Virus record (IMG/VR): IMGVR_UViG_3300011977_000034 | Location: 1 to 36,233 of that record | Direction: 5' to 3' (one strand) | Length of the DNA: 36,233 bases | DNA from: a virus | Part shown: in pieces, positions 3,411-36,233 of the stretch | How the letters are laid out: each line of letters starts with the position of its first letter | How positions within the stretch are numbered: position 1 is the first letter of the stretch | Notes under the pieces: model-generated | What the model was told of the DNA's origin: nothing | Database searches by the model: none | Seen by the model: the letters and a program-made list of their open reading frames with translations, nothing else | Translations under genes and position numbers: made by a program

Positions 3411-3445
3411 GTTTGCATAATGAGAACGAACGAACTAAAATCCCC

Positions 3446-3474: not shown

Positions 3475-3496
3475 GAAGCGGAAAGGAAGTGATGAA

Positions 3497-4176: not shown

Positions 4177-4193
4177 ACAATTAAGGAGCGATT

Positions 4194-5690
4194 ATGAAAA
4201 GAGCAGTGTTTTATGGTCGTTATTCCAGCGACCGACAGACAGAGCAGAGCATTGAGGGGCAGCGGCGTGTCTGCGAAGAGTTTGCAAAGGCAGAGCAAAT
4301 TCAAATCGTGGGCGAATACATCGACCGGGCAACATCCGGCACTTCTACAGAGCATCGAGAGCAGTTTCAGAAAATGCTAAAGGATAGCAAGAACGGCGGC
4401 TGGGATTATGTGCTGGTTTACAAACTCGACCGATTCGCCCGTAGCCGCTATGATAGTGCCATCAGCAAGCAGCAGCTGAAAAAGAATGGCGTAAAGGTAT
4501 TATCTGCGACTGAACGCATTACAGACAGTCCAGAGGGCATTTTGATTGAAGGCTTGCTGGAATCCATGGACGAATATTTCAGCCGGGAACTTTCCCGAAA
4601 ATGCAAGCGTGGCATTCGGGAAAGCATTATAAAAGGGCATAATTTCGGCGGTCGGGTCCTGTATGGCTATGACCGGAAAGACAAGCGGTTTGTCATCAAC
4701 GAAGAGCAGGCGGTGAATGTACGGCGGATTTTCAAAAGCTATCTTTCCGGCTGCACGATTCAATCCATTGCAGACCAGCTGAATGCAGATGGATACCGGA
4801 CGAACTACGGGAACGAATTTAAACGCTATACCGTTTCCGACATCCTGCACAATGACAAATATACAGGGATACACTACATAGACGGCATCGAAGAGCCAGA
4901 AACCTGTCCGGCAATCATCTCACAGACGACATTTGACCGGGCAAAGGAAAAGTTGAATCAGTCTGCCCACCGTTCCAGAGAACACGCCACAGGGCATACT
5001 TACGCACTGTCAGGGCTGTTGCAGTGTGGTGTCTGCGGAAGATATGTCTGCGGTTCGTCTGTAGAACGAAAGTATTTCTATTATGCTTGCCGGAGCAGGG
5101 AGCATGCAGAAAACAGCGTACATATTCATGCAGACAAACTGGAGCAGGTGGTGATAGATGCCTTGCAAACCTTTTTCACAGAAGAGCAGGTTTCCACGCT
5201 TGCAGAACGACTGTACCAAATCTATACCACGGATATGGATGGAAAACCAGACCGCAGCAAACGGCTGAATGAGATTGAAAAACAGATACAAGGAACGGTG
5301 AACGCTCTGATTGCGTGTCCAAGTTCCAAGGCATTGCAAGAAAAATTGACTCAGCTGGAAGAACAAAAAGCAGAAATTGAAAAGATGCCGATTTTGCAGC
5401 CGCAGCTGAAAAAAGAGCATTTTGAAAATTATTTTCGTTGGCTGGCTCTTCGGCTGGAGCATATCGAAGACCGTCAGACGTTTTTCCATACCGTGATTCA
5501 CAAAGTGCTTGTTTATCCAGAAAAAGCAGTTATCATCTTGAATATGACCGATGAAATGGCAGACCCACCAAAGAGAGAACAGGTTGAAGCGTTTATGTCT
5601 AATGTAGGGGAAGTGTCCCCTTGTCCTACACTATACAAACTTTATGTTACGCCGTTTGCTATTTTCATTCGTGCAGCACTCATAAAATAA
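4194..5690 (+). CDS. int: Large serine recombinase (phage integrase)
   Basis: The N-terminus has a resolvase catalytic domain (AVFYGRYSSDRQ..EGQ). A recombinase domain and a zinc ribbon (CGVCGRYVCG...YYYACRS) follow, then a coiled-coil C-terminus. AAGGAG is the RBS. Confidence 0.95.
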   Translation: MKRAVFYGRYSSDRQTEQSIEGQRRVCEEFAKAEQIQIVGEYIDRATSGTSTEHREQFQKMLKDSKNGGWDYVLVYKLDRFARSRYDSAISKQQLKKNGVKVLSATERITDSPEGILIEGLLESMDEYFSRELSRKCKRGIRESIIKGHNFGGRVLYGYDRKDKRFVINEEQAVNVRRIFKSYLSGCTIQSIADQLNADGYRTNYGNEFKRYTVSDILHNDKYTGIHYIDGIEEPETCPAIISQTTFDRAKEKLNQSAHRSREHATGHTYALSGLLQCGVCGRYVCGSSVERKYFYYACRSREHAENSVHIHADKLEQVVIDALQTFFTEEQVSTLAERLYQIYTTDMDGKPDRSKRLNEIEKQIQGTVNALIACPSSKALQEKLTQLEEQKAEIEKMPILQPQLKKEHFENYFRWLALRLEHIEDRQTFFHTVIHKVLVYPEKAVIILNMTDEMADPPKREQVEAFMSNVGEVSPCPTLYKLYVTPFAIFIRAALIK

Positions 5691-5732: not shown

Positions 5733-5754
5733 GCATTAGAATAAAGTAAAATTT

Positions 5755-5810
5755 GCGACAAGTACAATATACCATTCTTTTTATGATTTGTCAATAAAAT
5801 CACTTGTCGA
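5755..5810. other. Candidate attP: inverted repeat GCGACAAGT / ACTTGTCGA plus extra TTGTCRA copies, next to the integrase gene
   Basis: The arms lie at 5755-5763 and 5802-5810 in an AT-rich, non-coding 136-bp gap. There is no experimental or comparative support. Confidence 0.3.
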
Positions 5811-5826
5811 ATTTTGTCGATGAAAA

Positions 5827-7080
5827 TTATAGCTTTTCGTCCAACGAAGACACATGCTTCAAAATCTGCTGCAACGTAGATTCTTCGGTGTCTGGTTCAG
5901 GTGTTGGTGTTGGCTCTGGTTTTGGTTCAGCCGGCTGCGTTGTTTTCGTAAAACCATTTAAACCAGCAGCTTTAATAATTGCTGGGTAATCGGTGTAACA
6001 GTAATCCATATCACACTCGCCAATAATACCGGGGATACTTTTTTGCCCAATAATGTCATACTCTTCGTTACCAGCTACATTATACTGCCAAATGCCGTAT
6101 GGATTTTGATACGTGCATTTACTTGCGTACTGTGCACACCAGACCGTATAACGGCTTTTGATACTATCTGACAGGTAATTGTCTAAGTAGTAGGTACTGC
6201 AATACAGACCGGCATAGTATCCGGATTGCTCCAGCACACTTAAAAATGCATCTACTATTGCAGAACAAGCCGCCTTGCCTAATGCAAATTGTTTTGCAAG
6301 CTCCAAGTCCATATAAACCGGATACTCAAACGATTTACCTTTGATGGTCTGCAAAAACACCTGTGCTTCACGTTTTGCCTCGTCTGCTGACATCGCATAG
6401 CTAAACCAGTACGCACCGCATGGGATTTCCAAACGCTTACAAGCTGCATAGTTTCGTTCAAATTGCGTGTCTACCTGAGATGTTTCCCTGCCGTATCCAG
6501 CCCGTAAAATCGCAAAGTCAACCAGTCCGGATGCTTTTGCAGCGTCCCAGTCAATCTTGTTTTGACAGTATGACACATCGATGCCTTTTAAAATACTTGT
6601 TGTTTCTGTTGTCTTTTTGATACCAAAATACTTGTAAAAATCCTCTGTAACTGTGCCGTTTCCCTTTGTTTCATCGCCCAACCAGCGGTATCCTGTCCGC
6701 ACATCCAGATGTGTGTACTGATAACTACTTGTGATGTTGGCAATACCGCCAAAACCTAAATCCTGTGCTTTGCAACACACCGTCTTGCTGCTGATTGGCT
6801 GTCCGTCCTGCCCATAGCAGCAAACATCCGCAGCCGTACCTTTGGTATGCTGACCGCTGCTTGTACCGCCAACCGCCTTGTCATGCTCCTGGCAGCGGTA
6901 GCCGCTTGTCACAATGATTTTGCTACAGTTCAGGGCGGTGTAGAGGGTTTCCAGCTTGTCGACCAATTCAGATGCAATCAAAGTTTCATGTGATTGTCCG
7001 CACTGACACCGGAATTCACGTGCATTGAAATGCGGGGAAAGCTGGGTATTATCGTTATAATCATAATGATTCACTGACAT
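5827..7080 (-). CDS. Two-domain endolysin: N-terminal peptidase M15-type (Zn D-Ala-D-Ala carboxypeptidase-like) plus GH25 muramidase
   Basis: The N-terminus LSPHFNAREFRC...VTSGYRCQEHDKAVGG...GQHTKGTAADV is M15A-like. The middle, GIDVSYCQNKIDWDAAKASGLVDFAILRAGYG...YWFSY...YMDLE, is GH25-like. The C-terminus is a PEPT-rich linker plus 20 aa. Confidence 0.9.
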   Translation of the reverse strand: MSVNHYDYNDNTQLSPHFNAREFRCQCGQSHETLIASELVDKLETLYTALNCSKIIVTSGYRCQEHDKAVGGTSSGQHTKGTAADVCCYGQDGQPISSKTVCCKAQDLGFGGIANITSSYQYTHLDVRTGYRWLGDETKGNGTVTEDFYKYFGIKKTTETTSILKGIDVSYCQNKIDWDAAKASGLVDFAILRAGYGRETSQVDTQFERNYAACKRLEIPCGAYWFSYAMSADEAKREAQVFLQTIKGKSFEYPVYMDLELAKQFALGKAACSAIVDAFLSVLEQSGYYAGLYCSTYYLDNYLSDSIKSRYTVWCAQYASKCTYQNPYGIWQYNVAGNEEYDIIGQKSIPGIIGECDMDYCYTDYPAIIKAAGLNGFTKTTQPAEPKPEPTPTPEPDTEESTLQQILKHVSSLDEKL

Positions 7081-23053: not shown

Positions 23054-23074
23054 ATTTTTCTCCTTTCGGGCATG

Positions 23075-23097
23075 AAAAAAGCACCTCATTGAGATGC
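23075..23097 (-). terminator. Sense-oriented intrinsic terminator-like element upstream of the 87-aa gene
   Basis: The minus-strand RNA is GCAUCUC-AAU-GAGGUGC-UUUUUU. Confidence 0.55.
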
Positions 23098-23127
23098 TTT
23101 TCATATTTTTGGTTTTAGAGGGCAAGA

Positions 23128-23373
23128 TTAACATGGTTGAATCTCAACATCTGCATATATTTCAGACAAAGATTTTCCGTCTATAAATGGAAATGTAAAA
23201 ACTTCATTTTCCTCTGTTACATCATATTCATCTGTTCCATATCGAAGATGGTATATATTTTTTTTAAGTTCATCACTATAACAGCAGTCAATATATCCAT
23301 CTTTTTCGCCACATGTAAAAGCCACATAGAACGCATTTTGCAATTCTTTTTGAATTTCCATCACATTTTTCAT
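23128..23373 (-). CDS. Hypothetical 81-aa acidic protein, coupled (ATGA) to the MuF gene; candidate immunity protein
   Basis: This is a tracked ORF in very AT-rich sequence. Its ATG overlaps the MuF stop codon. Confidence 0.65.
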   Translation of the reverse strand: MKNVMEIQKELQNAFYVAFTCGEKDGYIDCCYSDELKKNIYHLRYGTDEYDVTEENEVFTFPFIDGKSLSEIYADVEIQPC

Positions 23374-24803
23374 AGTATATCACCATTTTCTTTTCGTTCT
23401 GTTTCAGTAAGTTCTCTTGCACTTCCTCGATGCAATTCGCCATGCTCACCATAAATATAATCATGTGCATGTTCTCCAAAAAAGCCTCTATCTTCTTCTA
23501 TTGCATTTCCATGTCCATTATTACTTATCTGCAAAAACTGATTTCCGTTTTCATCATAATAATTTCGATTAACGCCGCCTTTTGCATTCACAATTTGCGT
23601 AATAGAATTTGGTTTATCCTGCAAGGTCGTTTTCTCAACAATTTTGACTTCTTCTCCAGAAGCGGTATAAACGACTTCATCAAGAATCTTTCCATTTTCA
23701 TCAAAATGAAGAGCAGAAAGCACTCGTTCGATAACTTCTTTTGCTTTTTTGGAACGTTCTGCACGTTCGTCAGCACTGTATTTCGATTTGTATTTTTTCT
23801 GTTTTGTTTTTATTATACCATCTTTCCGCGTATCTGTCAATAAAATTGCATCTGATTTTCCACTTCCAGAATCGGCATTCAACCGTCCATTTATCGTCGC
23901 CAAATCCTCCACCACCGGCATAACGGTACATCTGCACCAAGGGTGCATCGGTGGAAAATTCAAGCCGGCATTCCGTTTGCTGATTTCAAATGTCTGTCCA
24001 CTCAACGCACGGCAAGTTTCACAGGTGCGGTGGTCTTCTACACAGAGATATTCATAATGCGTATAAGCTGCATTCCGTTCAAATGGTCGAATTTTCGCTT
24101 CATTGGATAAGTACGTATCTTCTGTAAAAACCAGCCGTTCTGCTTGCTTCTGCGATGTATTTTCAAACTTCTGCTGCAAGATTCTTGACATGGTCCTATA
24201 ATCTTCACCACGAATCAGACCGTTTGCAATCTCGTTTTGTAAAGTCTGTGCTAAGGCTTCTCGGTTTGCCCAAATCCGTTCAGAAAAATCTTTGCCATTG
24301 CACCAAGGATTCCCAATCACAACTTGCAACATCTCGCTGTCAATCCGGTAAAAATTCGTCCCGAATCCCAACTGCTCCGCTGCATAGTTTGCATATTTCA
24401 ACGCCTGTTTCTCAAAGTGTTCTCGAAATTTCGCTTGCTCAATCGCTCCGATTTTTAATTGCTGCAATACGATAGAAGTTTGCAATCCTTCCAAGCGGTT
24501 CAGTTTGTAAATGCTCTCCCGAACAGGGAGCAGGTCGGCAAACTCTGGATATTGCTTTGCAAATTCATCCATGTTTTGCAGCAGCAGTTGCTTGTCTGCA
24601 TCCGGTAATTCTAGCAGCAATGTGCGGAATGCAATCACATTTTCTTCGCCATATTTGGCATAGTACGCTGCGATTTCTTTGTCCAGTGCTGCATATTCCT
24701 GTTCATAGTATTTCGACAACTCCGAGAAGAGCTGCTTTTCATCTTTGCTTAAAGATACATCCAATTCTTGCAGCCGCTTGCTCCAGTAGGTGTCACTCTG
24801 CAT
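23370..24803 (-). CDS. Head morphogenesis protein, SPP1 gp7 / MuF family, with a 177-aa C-terminal extension (477 aa)
   Basis: The MuF core ends in CETCRALSGQTF...LNFPPMHPWCRCTVMP. The extension (residues 301-477, 23370-23903) ends in NRNYYDENGNQFLQISNNGHGNAIEEDRGFFGEHAHDYIYGEHGELHRGSARELTETE. Confidence 0.9.
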   Translation of the reverse strand: MQSDTYWSKRLQELDVSLSKDEKQLFSELSKYYEQEYAALDKEIAAYYAKYGEENVIAFRTLLLELPDADKQLLLQNMDEFAKQYPEFADLLPVRESIYKLNRLEGLQTSIVLQQLKIGAIEQAKFREHFEKQALKYANYAAEQLGFGTNFYRIDSEMLQVVIGNPWCNGKDFSERIWANREALAQTLQNEIANGLIRGEDYRTMSRILQQKFENTSQKQAERLVFTEDTYLSNEAKIRPFERNAAYTHYEYLCVEDHRTCETCRALSGQTFEISKRNAGLNFPPMHPWCRCTVMPVVEDLATINGRLNADSGSGKSDAILLTDTRKDGIIKTKQKKYKSKYSADERAERSKKAKEVIERVLSALHFDENGKILDEVVYTASGEEVKIVEKTTLQDKPNSITQIVNAKGGVNRNYYDENGNQFLQISNNGHGNAIEEDRGFFGEHAHDYIYGEHGELHRGSARELTETERKENGDIL

Positions 24804-26136: not shown

Positions 26137-27342
26137 TTATATCCCGCCAATCACTCTGGAAATGCTTGCTTCTTCGCCCATAATTGTGTTGACAAAATAT
26201 CGCACGTCATCCATAGCATGGTCATTTTCCTTAATTGGTCTGTCTTCGCTGCACGATTCATCCCAGCGATACAAGCCAAACTCTCGAATGCAGTTCTTGC
26301 AATCGGGAGAGAATCGCAATTTTTCCGCCTGCAATGCAGAAGAAACTCGCCGGATGCCATCTACAACCGCATTCTTGCCTTTCCGAACGGTAAAATCTGC
26401 ATTCCGCAGTTCTGCAATGAAGCTCGCTGCGGATGGGTCAACAATGACACATTCAATCTTGTGGCTGCCTGCCAATTGTTGAATCCGTTGCAGATATTGG
26501 GCATTGGTGAGCTGTTTGCGTGTCTCTCTGCCACTGTAGTAGTATTCTGCCGCTCGGTAGGCGGTTGTTCCATCATAACACCAAAGCCCAGCAGAGAAGG
26601 CGTTTAGCGTGCCATAGTCCACGGAAATATACCATTCGCCTTGCGGATTGTCCCGTTGTTCTATGTGTTTTTCTCGGTCAAACTGCGGATAAATCAGCCC
26701 CTCTGCAATTGCCCATTCTCCCAAAATAAACCGGTTGTAAAATACGCCGGTATACTCTTTTTTGACGGATTCTACATACTGTGGGTCAAGCGTTGTATTG
26801 TCTTCTAATAAAAAACGCATGGTCAACATATCCAGTTCAGCCATGCGGTCAATGTATTCTCTTTTCAACCAGTGTTGGGGGCTGTCGGGATTGGTCGTTG
26901 CAATCAGCTTTGCACCAGGCACACGCAAACGGGATAGCAGCATAACAAAGAAATCCTTTGGGAACAGCGTCAATTCATCGCAGTACGCACCTTGCAGGGT
27001 CAGCCCTCGAATTTTGCCTTCGCTGCGTGCATCGTTTGCACCTTCCAGCAGAATCCGCCTGCCGAACAGATAGGCTTCTTTGGCAGAGGTTGAAAAAGAA
27101 AAATTACTTTGCCCAAACATGGCTTCCAGCGGAATCAAACAGTTTCGTTTCAACGTGGTCAACGACTTTCCGCACATCAGATACAGCTGATTTTGCGGCA
27201 TGGTAGCCAGCCAGAACCCCCAGCATACCAATGAAATCCACGTCTTCCCAGAAGAAACAGACCCTTCCAGCAAGTTAATCCGCTGCAACTTCTTTGTTCG
27301 CCACAGTTCCATCAATTGCCGCTGCTTCTTCGTGTAAATCAT
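26137..27342 (-). CDS. terL: Terminase large subunit (PBSX/Terminase_3-6 type)
   Basis: The N-terminus is IYTKKQRQLMELW..RINLLEGSVSSGKT, with a Walker A motif. A nuclease-type C-terminus has HAMDDVRY. An alternative start lies at 27372. Confidence 0.9.
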   Translation of the reverse strand: MIYTKKQRQLMELWRTKKLQRINLLEGSVSSGKTWISLVCWGFWLATMPQNQLYLMCGKSLTTLKRNCLIPLEAMFGQSNFSFSTSAKEAYLFGRRILLEGANDARSEGKIRGLTLQGAYCDELTLFPKDFFVMLLSRLRVPGAKLIATTNPDSPQHWLKREYIDRMAELDMLTMRFLLEDNTTLDPQYVESVKKEYTGVFYNRFILGEWAIAEGLIYPQFDREKHIEQRDNPQGEWYISVDYGTLNAFSAGLWCYDGTTAYRAAEYYYSGRETRKQLTNAQYLQRIQQLAGSHKIECVIVDPSAASFIAELRNADFTVRKGKNAVVDGIRRVSSALQAEKLRFSPDCKNCIREFGLYRWDESCSEDRPIKENDHAMDDVRYFVNTIMGEEASISRVIGGI

Positions 27343-27760
27343 CTTCCACCCCCTGTTCCTGCATTCCTGCAATCAGCTGTTCCGTCATGCCGTTGCTCGG
27401 CTTGTCTTGCTTCGCCGCCTGCCGCTTTTTCAAGGTCAGTTCTTCCCGTTGTACGGTCTTTCCAAGTACGTCCATGACCTTATCAAATGCTTTGGTATCT
27501 CGGTCTTCCGTGACAGCCTGAAACATGGCAACCAGCAGCAGCATTTCATTATCTGCGTCCTCTTCCGGAATGCCAAGTGCTTTCAACAATTCTGTTTGAC
27601 TGGCAGTCGGATGCAGGGAAAGCAGCAGCTTCATTTTGGCTTTCATGTCTTTTTTTCTGCGGCGTGCTTCTCCGGACTTTTTGCCTCCTTTTCTTGCAAT
27701 TTCTCTTTGTTCGTTCTCTGTTCGTTCGTCCATCGGAATCAGGTTTTCTTCATTTGCCAA
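27275..27760 (-). CDS. terS: Terminase small subunit
   Basis: The motif REIARKGGKKSGEARRRKK is typical of small terminases. The start is TTG, behind GGAGGGAGG. An alternative ATG lies at 27733. Confidence 0.8.
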   Translation of the reverse strand: MANEENLIPMDERTENEQREIARKGGKKSGEARRRKKDMKAKMKLLLSLHPTASQTELLKALGIPEEDADNEMLLLVAMFQAVTEDRDTKAFDKVMDVLGKTVQREELTLKKRQAAKQDKPSNGMTEQLIAGMQEQGVEDDLHEEAAAIDGTVANKEVAAD

Positions 27761-27785
27761 CGTCCTCCCTCCGTTTTTCAGGTAT

Positions 27786-27821
27786 AAAAAATCCGGACAG
27801 GAAGTTCTCCCATCCGGATTT
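27786..27821 (-). terminator. Intrinsic terminator between the late promoter and terS
   Basis: In minus-strand RNA, AAAUCCGGA-15 nt-UCCGGAUUU is followed by UUUAUA. The 9-bp stem has a GC core, and the U run totals 6. Confidence 0.7.
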
Positions 27822-27838
27822 CATTTTTCGATATTACC

Positions 27839-27868
27839 ATTATAGCACAGGTTGACATTTCAATTCAA
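27839..27868 (-). promoter_or_regulatory. Candidate late promoter with an extended -10 element (TTGAAT-18-TGcTATAAT)
   Basis: The minus strand has -10 TATAAT at 27839-27844, TG at 27846-27847 and -35 TTGAAT at 27863-27868. Confidence 0.55.
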
Positions 27869-27875
27869 TTCAATT
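27861..27875. repeat. Tandem pentamer (CAATT) x3 overlapping the -35 element and the stop codon of the regulator gene
   Basis: Read directly. Confidence 0.9.
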
Positions 27876-28272
27876 TTAGCAAATTCAACGCTTTTCTGTG
27901 CCAGTTATGAAACGTCCCAACAGAAATATGCATTATTTCTGCGATTTTCTCCCAGCTAAAGCCCATGATGTACCGATACCGCATCAATACCCGTAAATCC
28001 GGTGGCAGTTCGGCGATTCCTTGTTCTACTCGCTGGACATCTTTCATCAGGTTCTCTTTTACTTGTTCATACCGGTTTGACAGTTCTTCCAACCGTTCCA
28101 CGTACGTCTGTACCGCTGCGGTTGCCTCTCCCTTGCTCTTTGGCTCAAGGTTATAACAAACCGCCTTTGTGCTGCGTGCATCCGCTCGAAGTGTTTGCAC
28201 CAGCGTTTCGATTTGATGCAGTTCTTTCCATTTTGCGTTGCATTGTTTCAGGTCTTCTTTTGTCATCCTCAT
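27865..28272 (-). CDS. Late-gene regulator with a sigma-70 region-4-like HTH (RinA/ArpU/DUF1492 type) (135 aa)
   Basis: The C-terminus is LPPDLRVLMRYRYIMGFSWEKIAEIMHISVGTFHNWHRKALNLL. The position is immediately upstream of terS. Confidence 0.8.
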   Translation of the reverse strand: MRMTKEDLKQCNAKWKELHQIETLVQTLRADARSTKAVCYNLEPKSKGEATAAVQTYVERLEELSNRYEQVKENLMKDVQRVEQGIAELPPDLRVLMRYRYIMGFSWEKIAEIMHISVGTFHNWHRKALNLLKLN

Positions 28273-28556
28273 TTCTCCTTTGTTTTCAGCTGGATTTTCA
28301 TGAAGTCAATCTGATAATCCTGCTTGAAATGCTGCATTTGTTCCAGTTCGTCCGGTGCTTTACCAAATATGGGCGGTATTTCAGCAATGGACTGTAGATT
28401 CTCAAATAGTCTGTTCAGCCGTTTCTGTTTCCATCCATAGTGCCATTCCAGCGTCACAAACACCATCGCCATCCCCTGATAAATTGCCATTTTGTGACTA
28501 TACTCAACCTCGTTCTTGTTGTACAGGTTTTTCCGCTGTAAGGCTGGGTTCTTCAT
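28269..28556 (-). CDS. Hypothetical protein (95 aa)
   Basis: This is a tracked ORF with ATGA overlaps on both sides. Confidence 0.65.
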   Translation of the reverse strand: MKNPALQRKNLYNKNEVEYSHKMAIYQGMAMVFVTLEWHYGWKQKRLNRLFENLQSIAEIPPIFGKAPDELEQMQHFKQDYQIDFMKIQLKTKEK

Positions 28557-29050
28557 TTGGATTCCCTCATCTCTTTGTTTAGGATTTCCGCTGCTTTTTC
28601 GGCGTTTTCTTCGGTGTCAAAATATGTTGCACATCGCAGTTCAAACGCATTGGAAGCTCCTATATGCCAGCGGTTTTCTGCATGATTAAAATAAACAAGA
28701 AACTTTTGTCCATAGTTTCCCCAGTCCGGCACATAATCCGGACAGAGCATATCATGCAGCTGCTCAAGCCGTAACAATAACCGCATTTTCTTTGCGACTT
28801 GTTCGGCACGCTCTTTTGTTGGAAAACAGTTACCAATCTCAAAATTGTAGCTGTCTACGTCGTCATTCATATTGTAAAAGCTATGGGAAAGAAAATAATT
28901 ATCAATAAAAAAGTATTCTGCTCTAGCCTCCGGCTTCCACGGCTTCGGTTCTTCCTGCTTCTTCTGCATCTCCGCTTCTTTCTCCAACGCCTCCAGCTTT
29001 TCCAAAAAATCCGCTTTCAGGGCTTCCATTTTCTTTTCGATGTCGTTCAT
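28553..29050 (-). CDS. Hypothetical protein with an N-terminal coiled coil (165 aa)
   Basis: This is a tracked ORF coupled to rusA. Confidence 0.7.
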   Translation of the reverse strand: MNDIEKKMEALKADFLEKLEALEKEAEMQKKQEEPKPWKPEARAEYFFIDNYFLSHSFYNMNDDVDSYNFEIGNCFPTKERAEQVAKKMRLLLRLEQLHDMLCPDYVPDWGNYGQKFLVYFNHAENRWHIGASNAFELRCATYFDTEENAEKAAEILNKEMRESK

Positions 29051-29457
29051 TGTAATTCCTCCTTTTCCGCCTCCGTGATCTGCACGAACACGCCCGGAAC
29101 TTCCGCCCAGTACTTTTCCACCACTGCACTGTAGATTTGCTTGTCATCGCCCCAGTAGTGCAGTCTGGTCATGATGTCGAACAACGCCTTGCACAGGTTG
29201 TCCACATCCGGCTTGTTGGTATAGGGTTCGCCGTCCTGATGTTTGGCTTTGATCGGATAGCACCACTTCACAACAACTCGCACCGCACCGCTATACGGCT
29301 GTTCAGGGATGTGCTTCATCAGGTGTGCTGCAAGCTTGGCTTCCGCCTCGCCGTTGTTTCGCTTGTAGAAGTGATGCACGCCGTGCTTGTCAACGGTGTG
29401 TCCTTGTTGTTGGTGCGTACTGGTTGGCGGTATCATCGGCATAAAAAAAGTCGTCAT
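29047..29457 (-). CDS. rusA: RusA-family Holliday junction resolvase (136 aa)
   Basis: The segment KPDVDNLCKALFDIMTRLHYWGDDKQI is the RusA signature. GGAGGAAACAAT precedes ATG 29457. Confidence 0.85.
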   Translation of the reverse strand: MTTFFMPMIPPTSTHQQQGHTVDKHGVHHFYKRNNGEAEAKLAAHLMKHIPEQPYSGAVRVVVKWCYPIKAKHQDGEPYTNKPDVDNLCKALFDIMTRLHYWGDDKQIYSAVVEKYWAEVPGVFVQITEAEKEELQ

Positions 29458-29515
29458 ATTGTTTCCTCCATTTTTGTTTTTTCGTTTGCGTTTGTCAATG
29501 AAATGCAAAGTGTTA

Positions 29516-29598
29516 CAAGAGTGCCGTGCATTCGCACTCTTGTCACTTTGTCATTGACCTGTCAACAATCAAACAGTATATATATATACACTGTTTGA
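29516..29598. other. Non-coding palindrome cluster, candidate replication origin or regulatory region
   Basis: The elements are hairpin CAAGAGTGC-9 nt-GCACTCTTG (29516-29542), palindrome TTGAC-ct-GTCAA (29554-29565) and TCAAACAGT-(AT-rich 12 nt)-ACTGTTTGA (29569-29598). Confidence 0.4.
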
Positions 29599-29615
29599 CA
29601 GCAGTTTTTGACACC

Positions 29616-31847
29616 TTACTTTTTTCTATAAATATTTCCGTTTTCGATTTGAAACGCTGCATTTTCTTTCACGCGGTTTTTTACCGTATTATAAGATACG
29701 CCCAAATACTCCGCCATGTTTTGAACCGTCACCGTTCCGTCCATGTTGCAAGCGTTGAACGCATTTTCAAAAGCCGCTTTCTTATCGGCTTTCTGTGCCG
29801 CATAGGTTTCCTTTGTCTTTTTGCCCCGTTTCTGATTTCCACGTTGATACGGATGCATCTCGCTTTCTGACTGCAAATCTTTCAGCACGCCAATGGTATC
29901 TTCCACGTGCACCGGATACCGAAACCACAGATTCTTCGGCTCGAACTTCGGGAACTCTCGCAGCGTACCATCCAGCCGCCACGCCGTCCGCTGTCGCACC
30001 GTCCGTTTGATGGTTTCCATCTCGCTGAGAAACGCTTCATAGACGGCTGGCGGTAGATTGTCCTGACACAGTTTCAGGGCTTCCACATGGCTCAGCAGGG
30101 CATCCGGCGAGGCATCCGCCAACACTACCGGAGCATGCCGCCGCAGCTGTTCCACGCAGGCATCACAGATCGCCGTGTTGGTTTCCTGCTTGCGGATGTC
30201 CTCGGAGAGTTCCAGTTCTGTCAGGTCAAGCAGGGCATCGGGGTCACGGGCAAACACTCCCGAACCGGATGCTCTATCCATGCTGCGTTTGCCGCCCTGA
30301 GCCCCCTTGCTGTGGTGGTGGCAATAAATCACCGCACAGCCCAACTGCGTGCACACCTTGTCAAACTGGTTGCAGAAATGTGCCATCTGGTCAGCACTGT
30401 TTTCATCGCCCGTGATGACCTTGTAAATCGGGTCGATGATGACAGCAATGTACTGTTTTTTCTTGGCTCGCCGAATCAGTTTCGGGGCAAGCCTGTCCAT
30501 CGGCTCGGTCACACCACGCAGATTCCAGATGTCAATGCTCTGGAGATTCGCCGTCGGCAGTTCCATTGCCTGATACACATCCCGAAACCGATGCAGGCAG
30601 CTGGCTCTGTCCAGTTCCAGATTGACATACAGCACACGCCCCTTTGCACATTGCCAGCCCAGCCACTGCCTGCCCTCAGCAATCGCAATGGACATTTCAA
30701 TGAGGGCGTAGGATTTGCCGGCTTTGGAAGGTCCTGCAATCAGCATTTTGTGTCCCTGCCGCAGCACGTTTTCAATGAGCGGCGGCGATAGTTCCGGCAT
30801 GTGTTCCCACGCTTCCGCCATGCTTTCAAACTCTGGCAGGTCATCGGTGACACTGTCGATGTAGTCCTTCCACTCTGCCCACGAACCCAGCCCGATGTTG
30901 GTTGCAACTAAGAATTGCTTCTTTCCGTTTCGCATCACGCCCGGCATTCTGGATAGACGGGACGGATTCCGGTTCTGACGGTCCACTTTCAGCCCGTTCT
31001 TGTCGCAAACGTCATAGAGGAAATCCACTCGCTTCCGGTATTCCTCGTAGTTTGGGGCATCCACTCGTACAATGGCGTGTAGGCTCTTGCCGCCGCTGTA
31101 AACCAAGCAGGCAATGGGCAGCTGCATTTCATGTAAAATCCCGTTCTGCCGTTCGATGTCCAGCACATCGGATTCTACCAACGCAAACCGATATTCCGTG
31201 ACATTTTCGTTCTTGCCGCCCTTGCCATCCAACGGGTTGAAGCGAATCCATGCCCCGGCTGCTTCCATGTAGTCCCCGAACACTGCCCCGATGTCCTCGC
31301 CGCACTGGCTCAGAGCCTCCAGCAGCTGCCCAGCGGTGCGGTCGCAGCAGCCGGAGGTTGGCATATACTTGCCGTCTTTGTTCTGCCATGTTTCCGTCAC
31401 ATAGCCCACGAAATCATCTGCTTCAAACAGCGTTTCGATATATTGGGAAAGTTCCTGTGCTGGATTCCATGTTTCCGGCTCTGGAATGGGGATGTCCTGT
31501 GCTTCTTTTCGGCTGGTAACCACATAATCTTCCCCAATGGTGTCATCCCAGTTCAAGGCATGAGATTCTTTTTTGGAATACTGGGGGCGGTAGCCGTTTT
31601 CCAGTGCCAGATGCACAATCGTTCCGGCAGTGACGGGATGTTCGCAGCCTGCAAAGGTTCGCCATTTCTTTTCGCATTCGCCCTTGTGATAGCGTGCAGC
31701 ATCTCGCTGTGACCAGACATCCCAAAGCGAACAGTCATAGCCGGCATCTTTCAACGCCATGCCCACGCCGCACCATTCCTGATAGGTTAAGGATGCAGGG
31801 TCGATGTAGTCCAGTAGTTCGTCTAAATTGTTATTTCTATCATCCAT
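29616..31847 (-). CDS. Replication protein: PriCT-2 plus AEP-type primase/polymerase plus AAA_25 (RecA/DnaB-like) ATPase plus C-terminal HTH (743 aa)
   Basis: Four segments support the call. YQEWCGVGMALKDAGY..WDVWSQ...KKWRTF is PriCT-2. VYSGGKSLHAIVRV is AEP motif III-like. IAGPSKAGKSYALIEM is Walker A. The HTH is MAEYLGVSYNTVKNRV. Confidence 0.9.
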   Translation of the reverse strand: MDDRNNNLDELLDYIDPASLTYQEWCGVGMALKDAGYDCSLWDVWSQRDAARYHKGECEKKWRTFAGCEHPVTAGTIVHLALENGYRPQYSKKESHALNWDDTIGEDYVVTSRKEAQDIPIPEPETWNPAQELSQYIETLFEADDFVGYVTETWQNKDGKYMPTSGCCDRTAGQLLEALSQCGEDIGAVFGDYMEAAGAWIRFNPLDGKGGKNENVTEYRFALVESDVLDIERQNGILHEMQLPIACLVYSGGKSLHAIVRVDAPNYEEYRKRVDFLYDVCDKNGLKVDRQNRNPSRLSRMPGVMRNGKKQFLVATNIGLGSWAEWKDYIDSVTDDLPEFESMAEAWEHMPELSPPLIENVLRQGHKMLIAGPSKAGKSYALIEMSIAIAEGRQWLGWQCAKGRVLYVNLELDRASCLHRFRDVYQAMELPTANLQSIDIWNLRGVTEPMDRLAPKLIRRAKKKQYIAVIIDPIYKVITGDENSADQMAHFCNQFDKVCTQLGCAVIYCHHHSKGAQGGKRSMDRASGSGVFARDPDALLDLTELELSEDIRKQETNTAICDACVEQLRRHAPVVLADASPDALLSHVEALKLCQDNLPPAVYEAFLSEMETIKRTVRQRTAWRLDGTLREFPKFEPKNLWFRYPVHVEDTIGVLKDLQSESEMHPYQRGNQKRGKKTKETYAAQKADKKAAFENAFNACNMDGTVTVQNMAEYLGVSYNTVKNRVKENAAFQIENGNIYRKK

Positions 31848-31858
31848 TTATCCATGCT

Positions 31859-33445
31859 TCACCCCTCCGGTATATATTCTGATGCGGTAATGCTGTTTGG
31901 GACACGCCAGCCGTTTGCAGCAATGCGGTTGATTAGATTTTTTGCCGCATCGAATTTCCAGCCGCCGACGTGCTGAAACCCGTACTTTTCCAAGCAGCGA
32001 ATTTGTTTTGGCGTTGCCAGTCCGCTTTGCTGCCGCTGAGCCACCGCACGCAGAATCTGTTCTGCTTTTCCGGCACTCTCTACGGCATCGGGATTGATGC
32101 CCCGTTTTTCCAAGGCTTTTTTCTGCTGGGCGGTCGGTGGATTGGATTCCCACCCGAACGCCGGAACATAGCCGGACAAATCCTGCGACTGAATCGACAG
32201 TTCATATTGCAACGGGTCGACCAGCTTCGATTTGCGTTTTTTCATCGCTTCCAGCTTTTCGGCAAGTTTCGCTTCTCGGTCTGCTACTACGTCTTCGGAT
32301 GCCCGATTCTCTGCTGCTTCGATGTCAATCGGGATGCCGACTTGCTCTTCCAGCAGCTGGGTCATCTTCTGCTGTACGGCTTCGTCCTCGCAAATCAGGC
32401 ACGCCGGACGGCAGAGTTCATGCTTCTCGGTATTCCATAAAAAATCCAACAAGAGTAAGTGGTCTTTGCCCTCTGCCAGCCGTGTGCCACGCCCGACCAT
32501 CTGACAATACAGAGCACGCACTTTGGTTGACCGCAGCACGACCACGCAATCCACATCCGGACAGTCCCAGCCCTCTGTGAGCAGCATGCTGTTGCAGAGC
32601 ACGTTGTACTTGCCATCCGCAAAGTCTTGCAAGATTTGTTCTCGGTCATCGGATTCGCCGTTGACCTCTGCCGCACGGAATCCGTGCTGACAGAGCAAAT
32701 CACGGAACTTTTGAGAGGTTTTGACCAGCGGCAGGAATACCACCGTTTTGCGGTCGGCACAGTGCTTTGCCATTTCGGCGGCGATTTGTTCCAGATAGGG
32801 GTCTAACGCCGTGGCAATCTCTCCGGGCTTGTAATCGCCGGCAGTTGTTCCAACCTGTGTAAAGTCAATCTGAATCGGGACGGTCAATGCCCGAATCGGG
32901 GTTAAGTATCCCTCGTGGATTGCCTGCGGCAGGGTGTATTCATACGCCAAGCTATCGAACACCTTGCCCAGATTTTGCTTGTCGCCACGGTCTGGCGTTG
33001 CCGTTACGCCCAGCACATGAGCACCGGAGAAATGATTTAAAATCACCTGATAGCTGTCCGAAATGGCGTGGTGTGCTTCGTCAATGATAATCGTCTGGAA
33101 GTAATCGGCTGGGAACTGAGCAAGGCGTTTCTGCCGCATCAGGGTTTGCACGCTGCCCACAGTGACCCGATACCATTGCCCCAGACAAGTTTGTTCTGCC
33201 TTTTCTACGGCACATTTCAAGCCGCTGGTGCGTTCCAGCTTGTCCGCTGCCTGTTGCAGCAACTCGCCCCGATGTGCCAATATCAACACCCGATTGCCGC
33301 TGCGAACTTCGTCTTCGGTGATTTTTGCAAAGACGATGGTTTTGCCGCAGCCGGTGGGCAGAACCAGCAGCGTGCGGTTTCTGCCCTCGTCCCACTCCCG
33401 ATGCACGGCGGTGCGTGCTGCCTGCTGATAGGGTCGCATTTGCAT
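31859..33445 (-). CDS. Superfamily-2 DEAD/DEAH-box helicase (ResIII plus Helicase_C) (528 aa)
   Basis: The motifs are MRPYQ, LPTGCGKT, IIDEAHH and TATP, followed by helicase C motifs (LTEGWDCP, QMVGRGTR). Confidence 0.9.
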   Translation of the reverse strand: MQMRPYQQAARTAVHREWDEGRNRTLLVLPTGCGKTIVFAKITEDEVRSGNRVLILAHRGELLQQAADKLERTSGLKCAVEKAEQTCLGQWYRVTVGSVQTLMRQKRLAQFPADYFQTIIIDEAHHAISDSYQVILNHFSGAHVLGVTATPDRGDKQNLGKVFDSLAYEYTLPQAIHEGYLTPIRALTVPIQIDFTQVGTTAGDYKPGEIATALDPYLEQIAAEMAKHCADRKTVVFLPLVKTSQKFRDLLCQHGFRAAEVNGESDDREQILQDFADGKYNVLCNSMLLTEGWDCPDVDCVVVLRSTKVRALYCQMVGRGTRLAEGKDHLLLLDFLWNTEKHELCRPACLICEDEAVQQKMTQLLEEQVGIPIDIEAAENRASEDVVADREAKLAEKLEAMKKRKSKLVDPLQYELSIQSQDLSGYVPAFGWESNPPTAQQKKALEKRGINPDAVESAGKAEQILRAVAQRQQSGLATPKQIRCLEKYGFQHVGGWKFDAAKNLINRIAANGWRVPNSITASEYIPEG

Positions 33446-33458
33446 CTTGTATCACTCC

Positions 33459-34016
33459 TTAAAACTGACCTTTGTTCCAGCCGCCCTGCGGTGACTGCCA
33501 CGGCTGTGTGCTATTCTGTGGAGAAGTGGGCTGCGGTGCGGTGTAGGTCTGCTGTGGGGCACTCTGAGCAAGCTGCGGCTGGTCATAGGATGGATACCAC
33601 TTTTCAATCTGGTTTGCCTGTCCAACGCCGCCATCTTTCTTGTCATAATTGCGGATTTTCACGTGACAAATGCCGCTTTTTCCGTTGACTTCCTGCCAGT
33701 TCATCCGTGCAGCCTGTCCCTTTTGCTTCATGCCGATGCTGGCGAAAAATTCCGACAGCTTCCATTCCATCTTTGTGTGCAGGAACAAGTTTTCCTGCAA
33801 GAGCACGCTGCTGCCGTCAGGGCTGAATACACGGAAGTGAAGGATTGCCTTGTTGCAAGGCGGAATTTTGTCAGAGCCGTTGTGTCTGGCACGGTCGAAC
33901 TTCTCCACGGTGAAGCGATAATCGCCCTCCGGCAGCAAAATGAAGCTGCTTTCCTGCTGGATTTCATCATCCCAGCCCAATTCGTGACCCTGTGCAGTTG
34001 TGTTATAGTTTTCCAT
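33459..34016 (-). CDS. DUF669-family protein (phage ssDNA-binding-like), Q/P-rich tail (185 aa)
   Basis: The segment WDDEIQQESSFILLPEGDYRFTVEKFD is typical of DUF669. It shows synteny with the AAA_24 ATPase. Confidence 0.8.
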   Translation of the reverse strand: MENYNTTAQGHELGWDDEIQQESSFILLPEGDYRFTVEKFDRARHNGSDKIPPCNKAILHFRVFSPDGSSVLLQENLFLHTKMEWKLSEFFASIGMKQKGQAARMNWQEVNGKSGICHVKIRNYDKKDGGVGQANQIEKWYPSYDQPQLAQSAPQQTYTAPQPTSPQNSTQPWQSPQGGWNKGQF

Positions 34017-34067
34017 GAAAAATACCTACCTTTCTAAATTTACCTTGATTGGTTTTGTTTGCTTGCA

Positions 34068-35138
34068 TTAAAACGGGACGTTTCGGTTCTGCTGAATCAG
34101 GTCGAAGATGTTTTTCCACCACGGGATGCACCAGCCCTCTACGAAATCCTGCGGATACTGATTGACGGGCATATCTTCCGGAAAATATCCCTTTTCCCCA
34201 ACAACCTGTTGCAGTTCTTCGGGGGAAACGTGATTTGCTTCCATCAGCTGTGCAAGCTGCGGAAAGATGCCGTCCAACGAATCCGGCGTTGTAACAATCG
34301 GCGTTGCAGTTGCAAAATCCTGTTCGGTCGGCAGTCCGGCAGCCTGTGCCTGTTCCACAAGCTGTTGGGCTTTGGATACCGGTACAGGGGCAGGAGTAGT
34401 AGCAAAGAGGGAAGCAATCGAAGCATATTCCAGCGGCAGCATCTCGGGCAGCCCGAACCGATTCTTTGCATCCCACCATGCGGACTTTGTGGTATACATG
34501 ACCCGATTGCAGGCGGTTGCCTTGTGTTTTTTTCCCTTGTCATCGGTTGCAATTACATGCGTCTGGAATGCCAGAAACAGGGTGATGTCCGACCACTCTT
34601 TTAATAGTGGTGCAATCTTGTTGGTCGTTTTGTTTCCCAGTTTCAGTTCCCAGTGATCGAATTCAGCGTCCACTTCCGGCAACGATGCTTTTCGGGTGAT
34701 GGCGTGGCAAAGCAACGCAACATGGATGCCTGCCTGAATGAGCCGTTCTGTGCTGTCCAGAAACCGCCCGATCTCTTCGGCTTCGTATTCCCAGCCCTTG
34801 CCGTAACCGAAGCCTTCGATGCCGTTCACGTTATGTTTGCTGCACAGTTGTGCAATGGCAAGGCGTTCCGCCCAGTCGAATGTATCAATGATGACCGTCT
34901 GATACTGCCGCTGCACATGAGATTCCAGCACGAATTTCAATTCCTGCTGCAACATCTCCCAGCTGGTGGGCTTCGGCAGCCGCCGAACGTCCATTTTGGA
35001 GGTGCTGCCCTCGCAGTCAATAAAGACCGCTCCCGGCAGCTGTGCCGCCAGGGAAGTCTTGCCAACGCCTTCCTGTCCGTAGATGACCAGCTTTATGCCG
35101 GAGCCGGTCTGAATGCCGTTTGTTTCTTCAAAATTCAT
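34068..35138 (-). CDS. AAA_24 / Sak4-like RecA-type ATPase (356 aa)
   Basis: The motifs are KLVIYGQEGVGKTSLAAQLPGAVFIDCEG and VIIDTF (Walker B). Confidence 0.85.
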   Translation of the reverse strand: MNFEETNGIQTGSGIKLVIYGQEGVGKTSLAAQLPGAVFIDCEGSTSKMDVRRLPKPTSWEMLQQELKFVLESHVQRQYQTVIIDTFDWAERLAIAQLCSKHNVNGIEGFGYGKGWEYEAEEIGRFLDSTERLIQAGIHVALLCHAITRKASLPEVDAEFDHWELKLGNKTTNKIAPLLKEWSDITLFLAFQTHVIATDDKGKKHKATACNRVMYTTKSAWWDAKNRFGLPEMLPLEYASIASLFATTPAPVPVSKAQQLVEQAQAAGLPTEQDFATATPIVTTPDSLDGIFPQLAQLMEANHVSPEELQQVVGEKGYFPEDMPVNQYPQDFVEGWCIPWWKNIFDLIQQNRNVPF

Positions 35139-36233
35139 TTAAAATGCTCCTTTCGTCCATGTCTTCTGCATGGTTGGCGGTTTCGGCTGCTGTTCCTGAT
35201 TGTTTACAGAATAGCCATCCTCAATAATGATGCTGCATTCCTCACCGGTAGAAACGCGTGTGGCGATTGCCTGCAAGCCCTCTTGCTCCAGCCACTGCCC
35301 GAATGTCTGTAAAGTGCTGCTATCCATCTGTTCCAGCTTGTCCAGCAGCACAAAACCGCAGTCTGGATTCAGCTTGCGAACAATGGCAGTTGCCACACGC
35401 AATTGTTCCGAACCGCTCATGCTGTCCCACTGTTTGCCGTGATACTGCAACGCACCGTTTTCCACCGTCAGCCCTTCTAGCGGCAGGTCAGCGGATTGCA
35501 GCAAGTCTTGCTTTTCTTGCCGGAGTGCGGAAATCTGTTCGGTCAATGCTTCGTAATCCTGCCGATAGGTCTTGGCTTCTTCTTCGGCGTGTTCCTTGTT
35601 CAGGTTGTCCCGAATTTTCATGTTGATGGCATCTATTTCCGCAATGCTCTTTTCCAGTTCAGCGGTAGATTCGTCCTGCAAATCCTGTGCGGACATCTGT
35701 GCAATCCTTGCATTCTGTTCTGCCTGTTCCAGTCGTTTTTTGGCTGCGTCATAGGCTGCCTGTGCAGCAGTGAGTTCCTGTGCATACTGAACGGCATGCT
35801 CTCGCTTTCGCTGATTTTCGCCGTTTCGTGCCAGTATCGCTTGCTGTTTTGCAAGGAGTTCTGATGCAGAAACAGGCGTACTGGGGACATTCTCCCAGCA
35901 TTGCAACTCTGAAGCGTACTTTTGTTTCTGGTCTGCGATTCTGCCGATGGCGGTTCTCTGGTTGTACAGGCGGCTTTCTTCTGCTTCCAGCTGTGCGAGT
36001 TGGTCGCCAATGCCAATGATTTGCAGCAGAATTGCCGCCTTTTCCTTGTCGGATGCATGCATAAACTTTGGCAAGTCCAGTGCTAACGCAGACAGAAACG
36101 AGTTTAGCAGCTGCTGTCCTGCCTTGTTCCCGTGTGGGTCGATGACTTTCAGGCTGCTGTTCTTGCCCTTTCGCTCCACAATCAGCCCGTTGGACAACTC
36201 TACATGCAAGATGGGGTCAGTGTATGCTCCATC
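35139..36233 (-). CDS. SMC/Rad50/RecN-like ABC ATPase, C-terminal part (joins 1-263 across the junction)
   Basis: A long coiled coil is followed by the signature-like MSGSEQLRVATAI and the Walker B motif FVLLDKLEQMD. The reading frame stays open to the end of the window and continues in bases 78-263. Confidence 0.85.
   Translation of the reverse strand, partial: DGAYTDPILHVELSNGLIVERKGKNSSLKVIDPHGNKAGQQLLNSFLSALALDLPKFMHASDKEKAAILLQIIGIGDQLAQLEAEESRLYNQRTAIGRIADQKQKYASELQCWENVPSTPVSASELLAKQQAILARNGENQRKREHAVQYAQELTAAQAAYDAAKKRLEQAEQNARIAQMSAQDLQDESTAELEKSIAEIDAINMKIRDNLNKEHAEEEAKTYRQDYEALTEQISALRQEKQDLLQSADLPLEGLTVENGALQYHGKQWDSMSGSEQLRVATAIVRKLNPDCGFVLLDKLEQMDSSTLQTFGQWLEQEGLQAIATRVSTGEECSIIIEDGYSVNNQEQQPKPPTMQKTWTKGAF
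36157..36233. repeat. Terminal 77-bp overlap, copy 2 (identical to 1-77)
   Basis: Same 77-mer as bases 1-77. Confidence 0.97.

Follow-up and report, generated by a model that had tools for sequence, protein, structure and literature searches.

A late promoter that fires into a terminator, beside an Ltr-type regulator gene in a phage of Ruminococcus/Oscillospiraceae: a candidate for promoter-loaded antitermination

Here we consider the place where early genes give way to late genes in a 36,233-nucleotide (nt) stretch of viral DNA, called the window throughout (IMG/VR record IMGVR_UViG_3300011977_000034, positions 1 to 36,233). The window resembles the whole genome of a temperate siphophage, and the locus is the late-gene control cassette of such a phage of Ruminococcus/Oscillospiraceae. 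In it, the gene for a 135-amino-acid (aa) regulator is followed by a promoter, the promoter by a hairpin with a U-tract, and the hairpin by the first gene of a ~22-kb late operon. The locus is very probably a late promoter that depends on a regulator of the Ltr type. It is also well supported that every polymerase expressing the late operon must pass this leader terminator and at least two weaker internal ones. That late transcripts need active antitermination to do so is a nearly balanced proposition. That the Ltr-type regulator both recruits polymerase at the extended -10 promoter and makes it terminator-resistant, in the manner of Q, is a more tentative one.

The promoter and the leader terminator

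An earlier note, made from the letters of the window alone, had placed a promoter on the minus strand, which is the strand of every feature below unless another is named. It listed TTGAAT (27868-27863), an 18-nt spacer and TGcTATAAT (27847-27839), overlapping both the stop codon of the regulator gene and a run of CAATT x3, and these positions hold when re-read on the sequence. The stop codon, TGA (27867-27865), sits within TTGAAT, a weak candidate for a -35 hexamer, and the CAATT copies of the plus strand are (TTGAA)x3 at 27873-27859. With the A residues before them (AAAA(TTGAA)x3, 27877-27859) and ATGTCAAC after them, these repeats form a regulator-specific box that occupies the -35 zone (27851..27877). 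The -10 element, TGTGCTATAAT (27849-27839), has the TRTG-extended, Gram-positive form and includes TGcTATAAT. A promoter scan gives TTGAAT-18 nt-TGcTATAAT a score of 10/12 plus TG, and transcription is predicted to start ~7 nt past the -10, at ~27832-27831. The name first given to this element, a consensus promoter, fits the extended -10; it does not fit the -35 hexamer, which is not conserved and whose place is taken by the box.

A single promoter-like match is, of course, not significant by itself, as the window scan returned 28 where 14.8 were expected. Unlike the single match, the conservation of the module, as judged from the related loci discussed below, is significant.

Polymerases starting here would run almost directly into a hairpin (27818-27792), which begins ~14 nt past the predicted start with only ~13 unpaired nt before it. 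Its 11-base-pair (bp) stem, UCCGGAUGGGA (27818-27808) / UCCUGUCCGGA (27802-27792), contains six G-C pairs and closes a 5-nt loop, GAACU. Flanking A-U pairs lengthen the stem to 15 bp (27822-27788), and a U6 tract follows (27791-27786). A hairpin and U-tract before terS had been noticed earlier and are indeed of the terminator type, but the 15-nt loop then assigned to the hairpin pairs internally, giving the stem and loop just described. The predicted energy is -17 to -21.7 kcal/mol (z = -5.3, with 0/200 shuffles equally stable), which makes this the second strongest sense-strand terminator in the window, after that at the end of the operon. An automated terminator scan misses it only because the stem is extended into the T-run, and an Rfam search of the whole window at gathering thresholds returned no family. 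As a sense-strand RNA hairpin followed by a U-run, the element therefore has the form of an intrinsic terminator. In all likelihood it is a working one, which also ends the early operon. From a start at ~27832 the terminated RNA would be 47-49 nt long.

Only ~13 nt separate the terminator from the ribosome-binding site (RBS) of the first late gene, GGAGGGAGG (27772-27764), which is kept in relatives. The gene itself (27275-27760, 161 aa) begins with TTG at 27760, a start backed by homology, as relatives have ATG at the equivalent MANE... codon. The earlier reading of RBS, TTG start and terS stands for the first two; the gene is a terS candidate by position only, having no match to a terS hidden Markov model (HMM) and belonging to phrog_2412, function unknown. 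The claim that there is no room for a promoter between terminator and first late gene is borne out. The spacer between T-tract and RBS is short (10-25 nt among relatives) and variable and holds no conserved -10; a promoter downstream of the terminator was therefore rejected. No other promoter is recognisable for the late operon. By geometry, the late transcripts are unable to avoid the terminator.

Conservation among related phages

Protein-guided retrieval gave 48 loci, 33 of them with distinct downstream sequences. A profile search and seven context look-ups added more distant proteins (34-43% identity), for ~40 distinct related loci in all, from Ruminococcus/Oscillospiraceae phages and with 34-99% protein identity. 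The related contigs come from Ruminococcus/Oscillospiraceae metagenome-assembled genomes and from human-gut viral contigs.

The same order (extended -10, 20-22 nt, hairpin, T5-8, 10-25 nt, RBS, gene) is found in 31/33 distinct loci. It recurs in all seven of the more distant loci, there with stems of wholly different sequence, for example AGCGGATCGGG/CCGACCCGCT and ACGCCGCTGGA/TCCAGTCGGCGT. At least eight unrelated stem sequences occupy the hairpin position. The T5-8 run follows the hairpin in nearly every related locus; in L059 it is interrupted (TTTCTTT). The leader terminators are near-canonical and uniformly strong across the relatives (-13 to -20 kcal/mol, U5-8), while the genes downstream of the module belong to at least four unrelated families and the small-terminase genes are non-homologous.

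The earlier note had proposed a covariation search of related leaders as a check. Among 28 aligned leaders, the stem is paired in 88.9% of cells, against 23-58% when the partner is slid. Seven of the 11 stem pairs change on both sides, and U.G and G.U pairs are common, on this strand only. Read from the alignment, the covariation supports a hairpin in the sense-strand RNA.

The DNA between promoter and hairpin is constrained as well. The TATAAT core is invariant in the 28 distinct aligned leaders, the extended -10 is present in seven more distant loci also, and it is nearly constant family-wide. Two nt (GG) past it lies a second -10-like hexamer, TAATAT (27836-27831; consensus TAnnAT), in which A2, A5 and T6 are invariant and T1 is present in 27/28 leaders; distant loci have TAnCAT. 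After CG comes a third, AAAAAT (27828-27823, ~+5 to +10; consensus AAnAnT), whose A2 and T6 are invariant in all leaders, including the distant ones (AAATAT, AAGAAT, AAAACT, AATACT). The two hexamers trail the -10 with an 8-nt period and share their invariant A2 and T6 down to the most distant loci. Lambdoid phages have a sigma-dependent pause element, used for Q loading, at a comparable initial-transcribed position (PMC9388147). By that analogy, the third hexamer may be a candidate sigma-dependent pause and loading element. Moreover, the leader from -10 to hairpin is almost free of insertions and deletions, while the spacer from T-tract to RBS varies in both sequence and length. The constancy of the leader and the two extra hexamers, set against a spacer that is free to vary, point to a putative functional initial transcribed region.

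Three other accounts of the hairpin were considered and rejected. A start inside the hairpin, which would escape termination, fails on geometry: even a start 7 nt past the third hexamer keeps a 9-bp stem and U6, and starts from any of the three -10-like hexamers include a hairpin of at least 9 bp and U6. An RNA antiterminator or riboswitch-type switch would have only the ~13 unpaired nt before the hairpin, and no alternative fold was seen. A DNA operator or cruciform does not account for G.U pairs on the sense strand only, for stems that covary, or for the T-run that follows.

A covariance model of the module finds one copy in the window, plus a weak 12.5-bit match at 23061-23124, which is an internal terminator. 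A pattern scan of IMG/VR for the leader gave 17 extra contigs, none of which fits the model, and these are taken as chance matches; the scan found the module only on contigs that encode the regulator family. One distant relative, L127, carries (at 1727-1880) a 39-aa open reading frame (ORF) and a second terminator-like hairpin (AGCCTTGC..GCAGGGCT plus ATTTTTAT) between leader terminator and terS.

The regulator and its box

The regulator gene (27865..28272) is the last of the early genes, and its protein consists of an N-terminal two-helix hairpin and a C-terminal sigma region-4 helix-turn-helix (HTH). Against Pfam, it matches Sigma70_r4_2 above cutoff (4.8e-11), and against the DUF1492 HMM it scores 17 bits, under the cutoff of 21.5; against PHROG, it matches phrog_36, “transcriptional regulator” (2e-23). 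An AlphaFold (AF2) model, with a mean confidence (pLDDT) of 86, gives a long two-helix hairpin and then a three-helix region-4 HTH. Among the 50 PDB fold matches listed, those found are region-4 domains only, such as those of sigma-E (including sigma-E region 4 on -35 DNA) and SigD, and none is a Q structure. The full-length fold matches phage DUF1492 proteins at TM scores of 0.75-0.87. Because of the sigma region-4 match and the DUF1492-type full-length fold, the protein belongs to the Ltr superfamily (the LtrA = Sigma70_r4 / LtrB = DUF1492 type) of Quiles-Puchalt et al. (2013; PMC3753634). The label first given to it, RinA/ArpU/DUF1492-like, thus stands for the fold; RinA and ArpU models are absent both from its Pfam matches (E <= 0.01) and from the best 25 of 50 NCBIfam matches.

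Those best 25 of 50 NCBIfam matches are all models of extracytoplasmic function (ECF) sigma factors, far below cutoff, with only the C-terminal part aligned. A full alternative, ECF-type sigma factor was rejected, as the protein has no region 2, its N-terminus is the two-helix hairpin, and its PDB matches cover region 4 only.

The regulator is only 27-30% identical to proteins of cultured phages, and its Ruminococcus/Oscillospiraceae clade is uncharacterised. Its context is the same in all relatives, where the gene precedes the terS-slot gene, terL, portal and MuF. By tblastn across the loci, it is the sole gene that is always adjacent to the module, which agrees with the earlier choice of this protein as the candidate factor. 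Directly upstream of it lies a 95-aa ORF without family match (orf95, 28269-28556), which is 85-99% identical in many relatives, exceeding the conservation of the regulator, and missing from several loci.

The -35 zone behaves differently from the rest of the module. While the -10 and the leader stay constant, conservation is lost in this zone, where the sequences sort into discrete types; these largely track the C-terminal recognition helix of the regulator. The helix ..S[VI]GTFHNWH.. pairs with the box (TTGAA)x3-ATGTCAA, the helix ..SKRMH.. with CTTGTTTGnnACAG, and the helix ..SETKSKRLHREALKMLEDKK with (AAGCCCnAAAA)x2-3. As the types follow the recognition helix, the zone is read as the putative binding box of the regulator. 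The box is parallel to the regulator-specific repeats found directly after ltr/rinA in S. aureus phages (PMC3753634, PMC13123087). With so weak and regulator-specific a -35 zone, the promoter probably depends on the regulator, in contrast to lambda PR', which is constitutive.

Link to CHARACTERISED systems

The Ltr superfamily comprises the late transcriptional regulators of Gram-positive phages: RinA, ArpU, LtrA, LtrB and LtrC, and also Alt of TP901-1. In S. aureus reporters, an Ltr protein alone suffices to switch on terS (Ferrer, 2011; Quiles-Puchalt, 2013; PMC3152322, PMC3753634), and a terminator in the spacer between ltr/rinA and terS fully blocks read-through, to background (PMC3152322, PMC3753634). 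For RinA, the DNA that is required extends more than 155 bp upstream of the 5' end found by rapid amplification of cDNA ends, which puzzled the authors (PMC3152322, PMC3753634). In our literature searches, no open-access paper was found that proposes antitermination for Ltr proteins.

Re-read with the present module in mind, several of these phages have a familiar order. In phi11 (L065), the rinA stop (340) is followed by TGGCAG repeats (344-362), a hairpin with T6 (455-478), the mapped 5' end (504) and terS (527). In phi13 (L122), 18-bp Ltr repeats end at the ltr stop, and TTGATG-18-TATAAT (4031-4060) follows; the TATA box of this promoter, P23 (4055-4060), has been validated by mutation. Downstream of P23 lie a hairpin and T-run (4092-4126), then an RBS and an ATG (4143). 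Streptococcus phage Javan630 encodes a 27%-identical homologue, followed by TATAAT, ~28 nt, a hairpin with T-run, an RBS and an HNH gene. In Lactococcus phage TP901-1, the Alt repeats are followed by TGTATTAT, a 480-nt leader that includes a pair of tRNA-like genes, and, immediately ahead of terS, a terminator-like hairpin. Thus, as far as order can be read from DNA, box or promoter, then terminator, then first late gene appears to recur in phi13, phi11, TP901-1 and Javan630. Two more phages were uninformative: in Terrisporobacter phage TVCOM_ph1 the genome ends beside the gene, and in Javan488 no Ltr gene adjoins terS.

The tRNA-like genes of TP901-1 (L123), between the Alt-dependent promoter and terS, are called by ARAGORN as Lys-ttt and Ala-cgc (3135-3209 and 3289-3376).

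Terminators within the late operon

The leader terminator is not the only one that late transcripts meet. Two further sense hairpins had been reported in the window, along with a terminator at the end of the operon, and all three are present. The first internal element, GCATCTC-AAT-GAGGTGC with T6 (23097-23075), stands after an AT-rich 81-aa accessory ORF and reaches -13.6 kcal/mol with its A/U extension; the second, CATCTGA-GCAAA-TCAGGTG-C with T6 (22696-22671; -8.2 kcal/mol), stands before the thioredoxin-like and scaffold genes. The terminator after the endolysin gene (5730-5689; -26.5 kcal/mol, z = -6.9, then U7) is the strongest. The late operons of this phage and of 16 relatives carry 2-5 further sense terminator-like hairpins each. 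The relatives share a hairpin family, GCATC..GrTGC-TTTTTT(C/G)AT, of which the first internal element of the window is a member, present in 2-3 copies per phage and with compensatory changes; members of this family could be partial terminators or sites of processing or stability.

These shared hairpins are located between the MuF, accessory and scaffold genes, each followed by an RBS, at +4.3 to +5.9 kb from the module (in L083, L085, L098, L102, L104, L107, L110, L111 and L118). Another hairpin with a T-run lies inside terL, at about codons 175-187 (26847-26810), and each terS/terL type has its own compact hairpin with T5-7 at +0.8 to +1.2 kb from the module, different in sequence and analogous in position.

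Antitermination or activation

How, then, might the late genes be expressed? In the mechanism that we favour, the regulator would bind its box, substitute for the contact of sigma-A region 4 with the -35, and recruit host RNA polymerase to the extended -10. It would then be handed over to the polymerase near the promoter, like lambda Q, 21 Q or AlpA, a step that a sigma-dependent pause at the conserved third hexamer may aid. The polymerase would thereafter resist hairpin-dependent termination throughout the operon. Without the regulator, as in lysogeny or early infection, both early read-through and basal firing would end at the leader terminator, and basal firing would give only the RNA of 47-49 nt. 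It can be argued that passive passage through all of the 2-5 further terminators would lose most transcripts, which favours antitermination. The specific assignment to the 135-aa protein, that it supplies the antitermination in a Q-like way after binding its box, is the reading we favour, if somewhat less likely than not.

The closest rival makes the regulator purely an activator of initiation, which only recruits polymerase (as a class II activator does, or a MotA-like substitute for the -35), with passive read-through thereafter. This is somewhat doubtful in its own right, and nearly as likely as antitermination by the regulator. Here, the hairpin would end the early operon and damp leak, and it would lie downstream of the promoter for no other reason than that box and promoter are crowded onto the regulator gene's 3' end. 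The early operon does need a terminator at this place, all of its genes (36209-27865) being on one strand, and a strong activated promoter would tolerate the loss of most transcripts. The activator account has experiment behind it: the characterised Ltr-family members are described as initiation activators (PMC3152322, PMC3753634, PMC13123087), and a phi13 reporter from -200 to +50 is silent without Ltr, which favours control at initiation (PMC13123087). This reporter ends, at +50, where the 3' edge of the hairpin lies; part of the terminator may thus be included, and the two steps are not cleanly separated. It is also in keeping with activation that the -35 zone is weak and regulator-specific, hence that the promoter is probably not constitutive, and that the internal terminators are weak (-7.5 to -13.6 kcal/mol). 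What activation leaves unaccounted for is a leader terminator that is near-canonical and strong in all relatives, not degenerate, together with the strict spacing of the leader and its invariant -10-like hexamers. With two to five terminators in series, few transcripts would reach the tail and lysis genes, and in the S. aureus reporters the intergenic terminator does cut read-through to background.

The description of the family as activators, the silent phi13 reporter, the weak -35 zone and the weak internal terminators weigh against antitermination, and other points do so as well. The regulator has no sequence or fold likeness to Q, N, AlpA, gp39 or p7. In phi11 and 80alpha the 5' end has been mapped downstream of the terminator, the 80alpha RNA having been exonuclease-treated. 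The third hexamer is only a moderate match to a -10. Of the two exceptions among the 33 distinct loci, L056 has no hairpin within 190 nt and L061 has its hairpin ~75 nt further on. Finally, the start site, termination efficiency and read-through for this phage are predictions from sequence.

Two further accounts would leave the 135-aa protein an activator or move the late start. Antitermination might come from another factor: a phage protein such as that of orf95, a host factor dependent on NusA/NusG, or a binder of the leader RNA that blocks the 5' arm. The leader is more conserved than a terminator alone requires, and so is orf95 strongly conserved in many relatives. Nevertheless, this account is improbable. 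orf95 was rejected as the factor, as it is missing from several loci that keep the module (it does not stand beside the module in L006/8, L035-38, L042, L053 and L060), and only the 135-aa gene co-occurs everywhere; in the S. aureus reporters, Ltr is the sole phage protein needed. No Q- or N-family protein (PF03589, PF06530 and PF06323 included) was found for the regulator or for any scanned ORF of the window, nor a NusG-like protein in any scanned ORF. This agrees with the earlier remark that no known Q, N or RNA element is recognisable, the Rfam search included. A promoter and terminator ~47 nt apart are, alternatively, formally a small-RNA gene, and the hairpin might be an mRNA stabiliser or processing site, with late transcription starting elsewhere or by early read-through. 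Short RNAs derived from PR' can be functional (PMC7547250), and the phi11 5' end lies just 3' of the terminator. We give this little credence, as no other conserved promoter lies ahead of the late genes and the module is always joined to the RBS of the first late gene, whatever the family of that gene. As in terminators, the U-tract always exceeds the upstream A-tract in length, and a 5' stabiliser would have to be at the extreme 5' end of the RNA.

Preferring antitermination at this locus, one may ask how far it extends. The wider proposition is that late regulators of the DUF1492/Sigma70_r4 type, and possibly the whole Ltr superfamily (RinA, ArpU, LtrA-C, Alt), are promoter-loaded processive antiterminators, a sigma-region-4-derived analogue of lambda Q; we regard it as rather unlikely. 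The box beside the extended -10 would be the loading site, the tandem -10-like hexamers a sigma-A-dependent promoter-proximal pause, and the leader terminator the checkpoint. If true, it would account as well for the distance in phi11, where RinA binds more than 155 bp upstream of the mapped 5' end.

Genome context

The early genes (36209-27865) encode a helicase, a primase, RusA and small ORFs, with the 135-aa gene last. The late operon runs uninterrupted from the terS-slot gene to the endolysin and covers virion and lysis functions, in the order terS-slot gene, terL (26137-27372, directly downstream), SPP1-type portal, MuF, three small accessory genes, scaffold, capsid, tail and endolysin (5827-7080, with GH25 and M15 domains). 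In relatives, the terS slot holds Terminase_2, GP3_package or HTH_Tnp_1_2 proteins. The window also encodes a serine integrase (4194-5690, plus strand) and an antirepressor. Early genes continue past both ends of the window on the same strand (1-4355 and 27865-36233); therefore, the 36.2-kb window is probably a complete, circularly permuted phage genome.

Other promoter- and terminator-like elements were seen along the way. In the 3' part of the MuF gene (23370-24803) lies a perfect sigma-A consensus promoter, TTGACA-17-TGnTATAAT (12/12 + TG; 23812-23840). The C-terminal 148 aa of MuF have no Pfam domain, and downstream of the promoter lie the AT-rich 81-aa ORF (23128-23373), which belongs to no family, and then a terminator. 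Promoter and ORF resemble a moron or else a cassette of MuF toxin and immunity, with expression in lysogens. In the gap from the endolysin stop to the operon-end terminator (5733-5826) stands TTGACA-17-TATATT (~5793-5765), which would fire into that terminator and is accompanied by TCGACAA repeats and an inverted copy. A small RNA is one possibility for this element; regulatory DNA, or DNA related to attP, beside the serine integrase gene is another. A second minus-strand terminator (4144-4175; CCGCCC..GGGCGG + T6, -12.4 kcal/mol) is found just upstream of where the integrase starts and is antisense to the promoter region of that gene, and it could serve as a back-stop before the early genes for late transcripts that pass 5689.

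Significance

Ltr regulators set the time of DNA packaging and cell lysis, both for Gram-positive phages and for the pathogenicity islands that hijack such phages. In the published work on RinA, the binding site is itself noted as lying too far from the mapped start, with a terminator between. The window and its ~40 relatives offer a compact natural layout of box, extended -10, 13-nt leader, terminator and RBS. Here, the order of promoter before terminator is unambiguous at the sequence level, which makes activator versus antiterminator testable on a template of ~130 bp.

Were antitermination confirmed, it would gain a new protein family, the first from phages of Firmicutes, and the tolerance of moron-type terminators within late operons would be explained. 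Were it true of the whole Ltr superfamily, it would cover packaging and lysis in many Firmicutes phages, hence also the production of SaPI (S. aureus pathogenicity island) and transducing particles. The modular pairs of regulator and box, with at least three specificities here, would be usable for synthetic control in gut Clostridia. Should the idea be refuted, there remain, for uncultured Ruminococcus phages, a late promoter and a regulator family that are well defined.

Comparison with known systems

The nearest relatives are, of course, the Ltr systems themselves. They share with this locus a small protein, encoded by the last early gene directly upstream of terS and having the sigma region-4/DUF1492 fold; regulator-specific repeats after or overlapping the stop codon; a conserved block with a terminator; and one operon from terS to lysis. 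They differ in how they have been described. In the literature, the terminator is placed after ltr and before the terS promoter, and the proteins count as activators, whereas here, and in phi13, Javan630 and TP901-1 as read above, the -10 is upstream of the terminator.

The likeness to lambda Q and PR'-tR', proposed in the earlier note, extends also to 21 Q and 82 Q. In each, the regulator gene is immediately upstream of the late promoter, a DNA site, here a putative one, lies at that promoter (with tandem direct repeats for Q21 as well), and a terminator soon after the start, before the first late gene, would give a short terminated RNA. Further terminators are found in the long late operon, and a -10-like hexamer in the initial transcribed region. 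The terminator here is much nearer the start, at ~+47; lambda tR' is at ~+194. The promoter here is probably regulator-dependent while lambda PR' is constitutive, the host is a Firmicute, pausing and loading are putative, and the protein has no sequence or fold relation to PF03589, PF06530 or PF06323. The lambda analogy thus holds for layout, and not for a constitutive promoter or for the protein family. The Q families are themselves unrelated analogues of each other (PMC9388147).

In the T4 MotA/AsiA system and gp33, as is proposed for this locus, promoters with a good -10 and no -35 are served by a phage protein that stands in for sigma region 4, in role or in position. This locus has a single region-4-like HTH protein with no AsiA-like partner seen, and no terminator logic has been described for MotA. 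P23-45 gp39 and Xp10 p7 (PMC3351154, PMC6624301) are flap-binding antiterminators from phages, small proteins that attach to the host polymerase and suppress intrinsic termination; unlike the regulator proposed here, they are not loaded at a DNA site, are not region-4-like, and also inhibit host initiation. A precedent is AlpA of Pseudomonas aeruginosa, which has been re-assigned from activator to antiterminator (PMC7969949). Its fold and host are unrelated, and the genes under its control form a lysis cassette instead of a whole virion operon. As in the reading favoured for this locus, however, AlpA is a small HTH protein, long deemed an activator, that binds beside a promoter and enables polymerase to get past a terminator close to that promoter.

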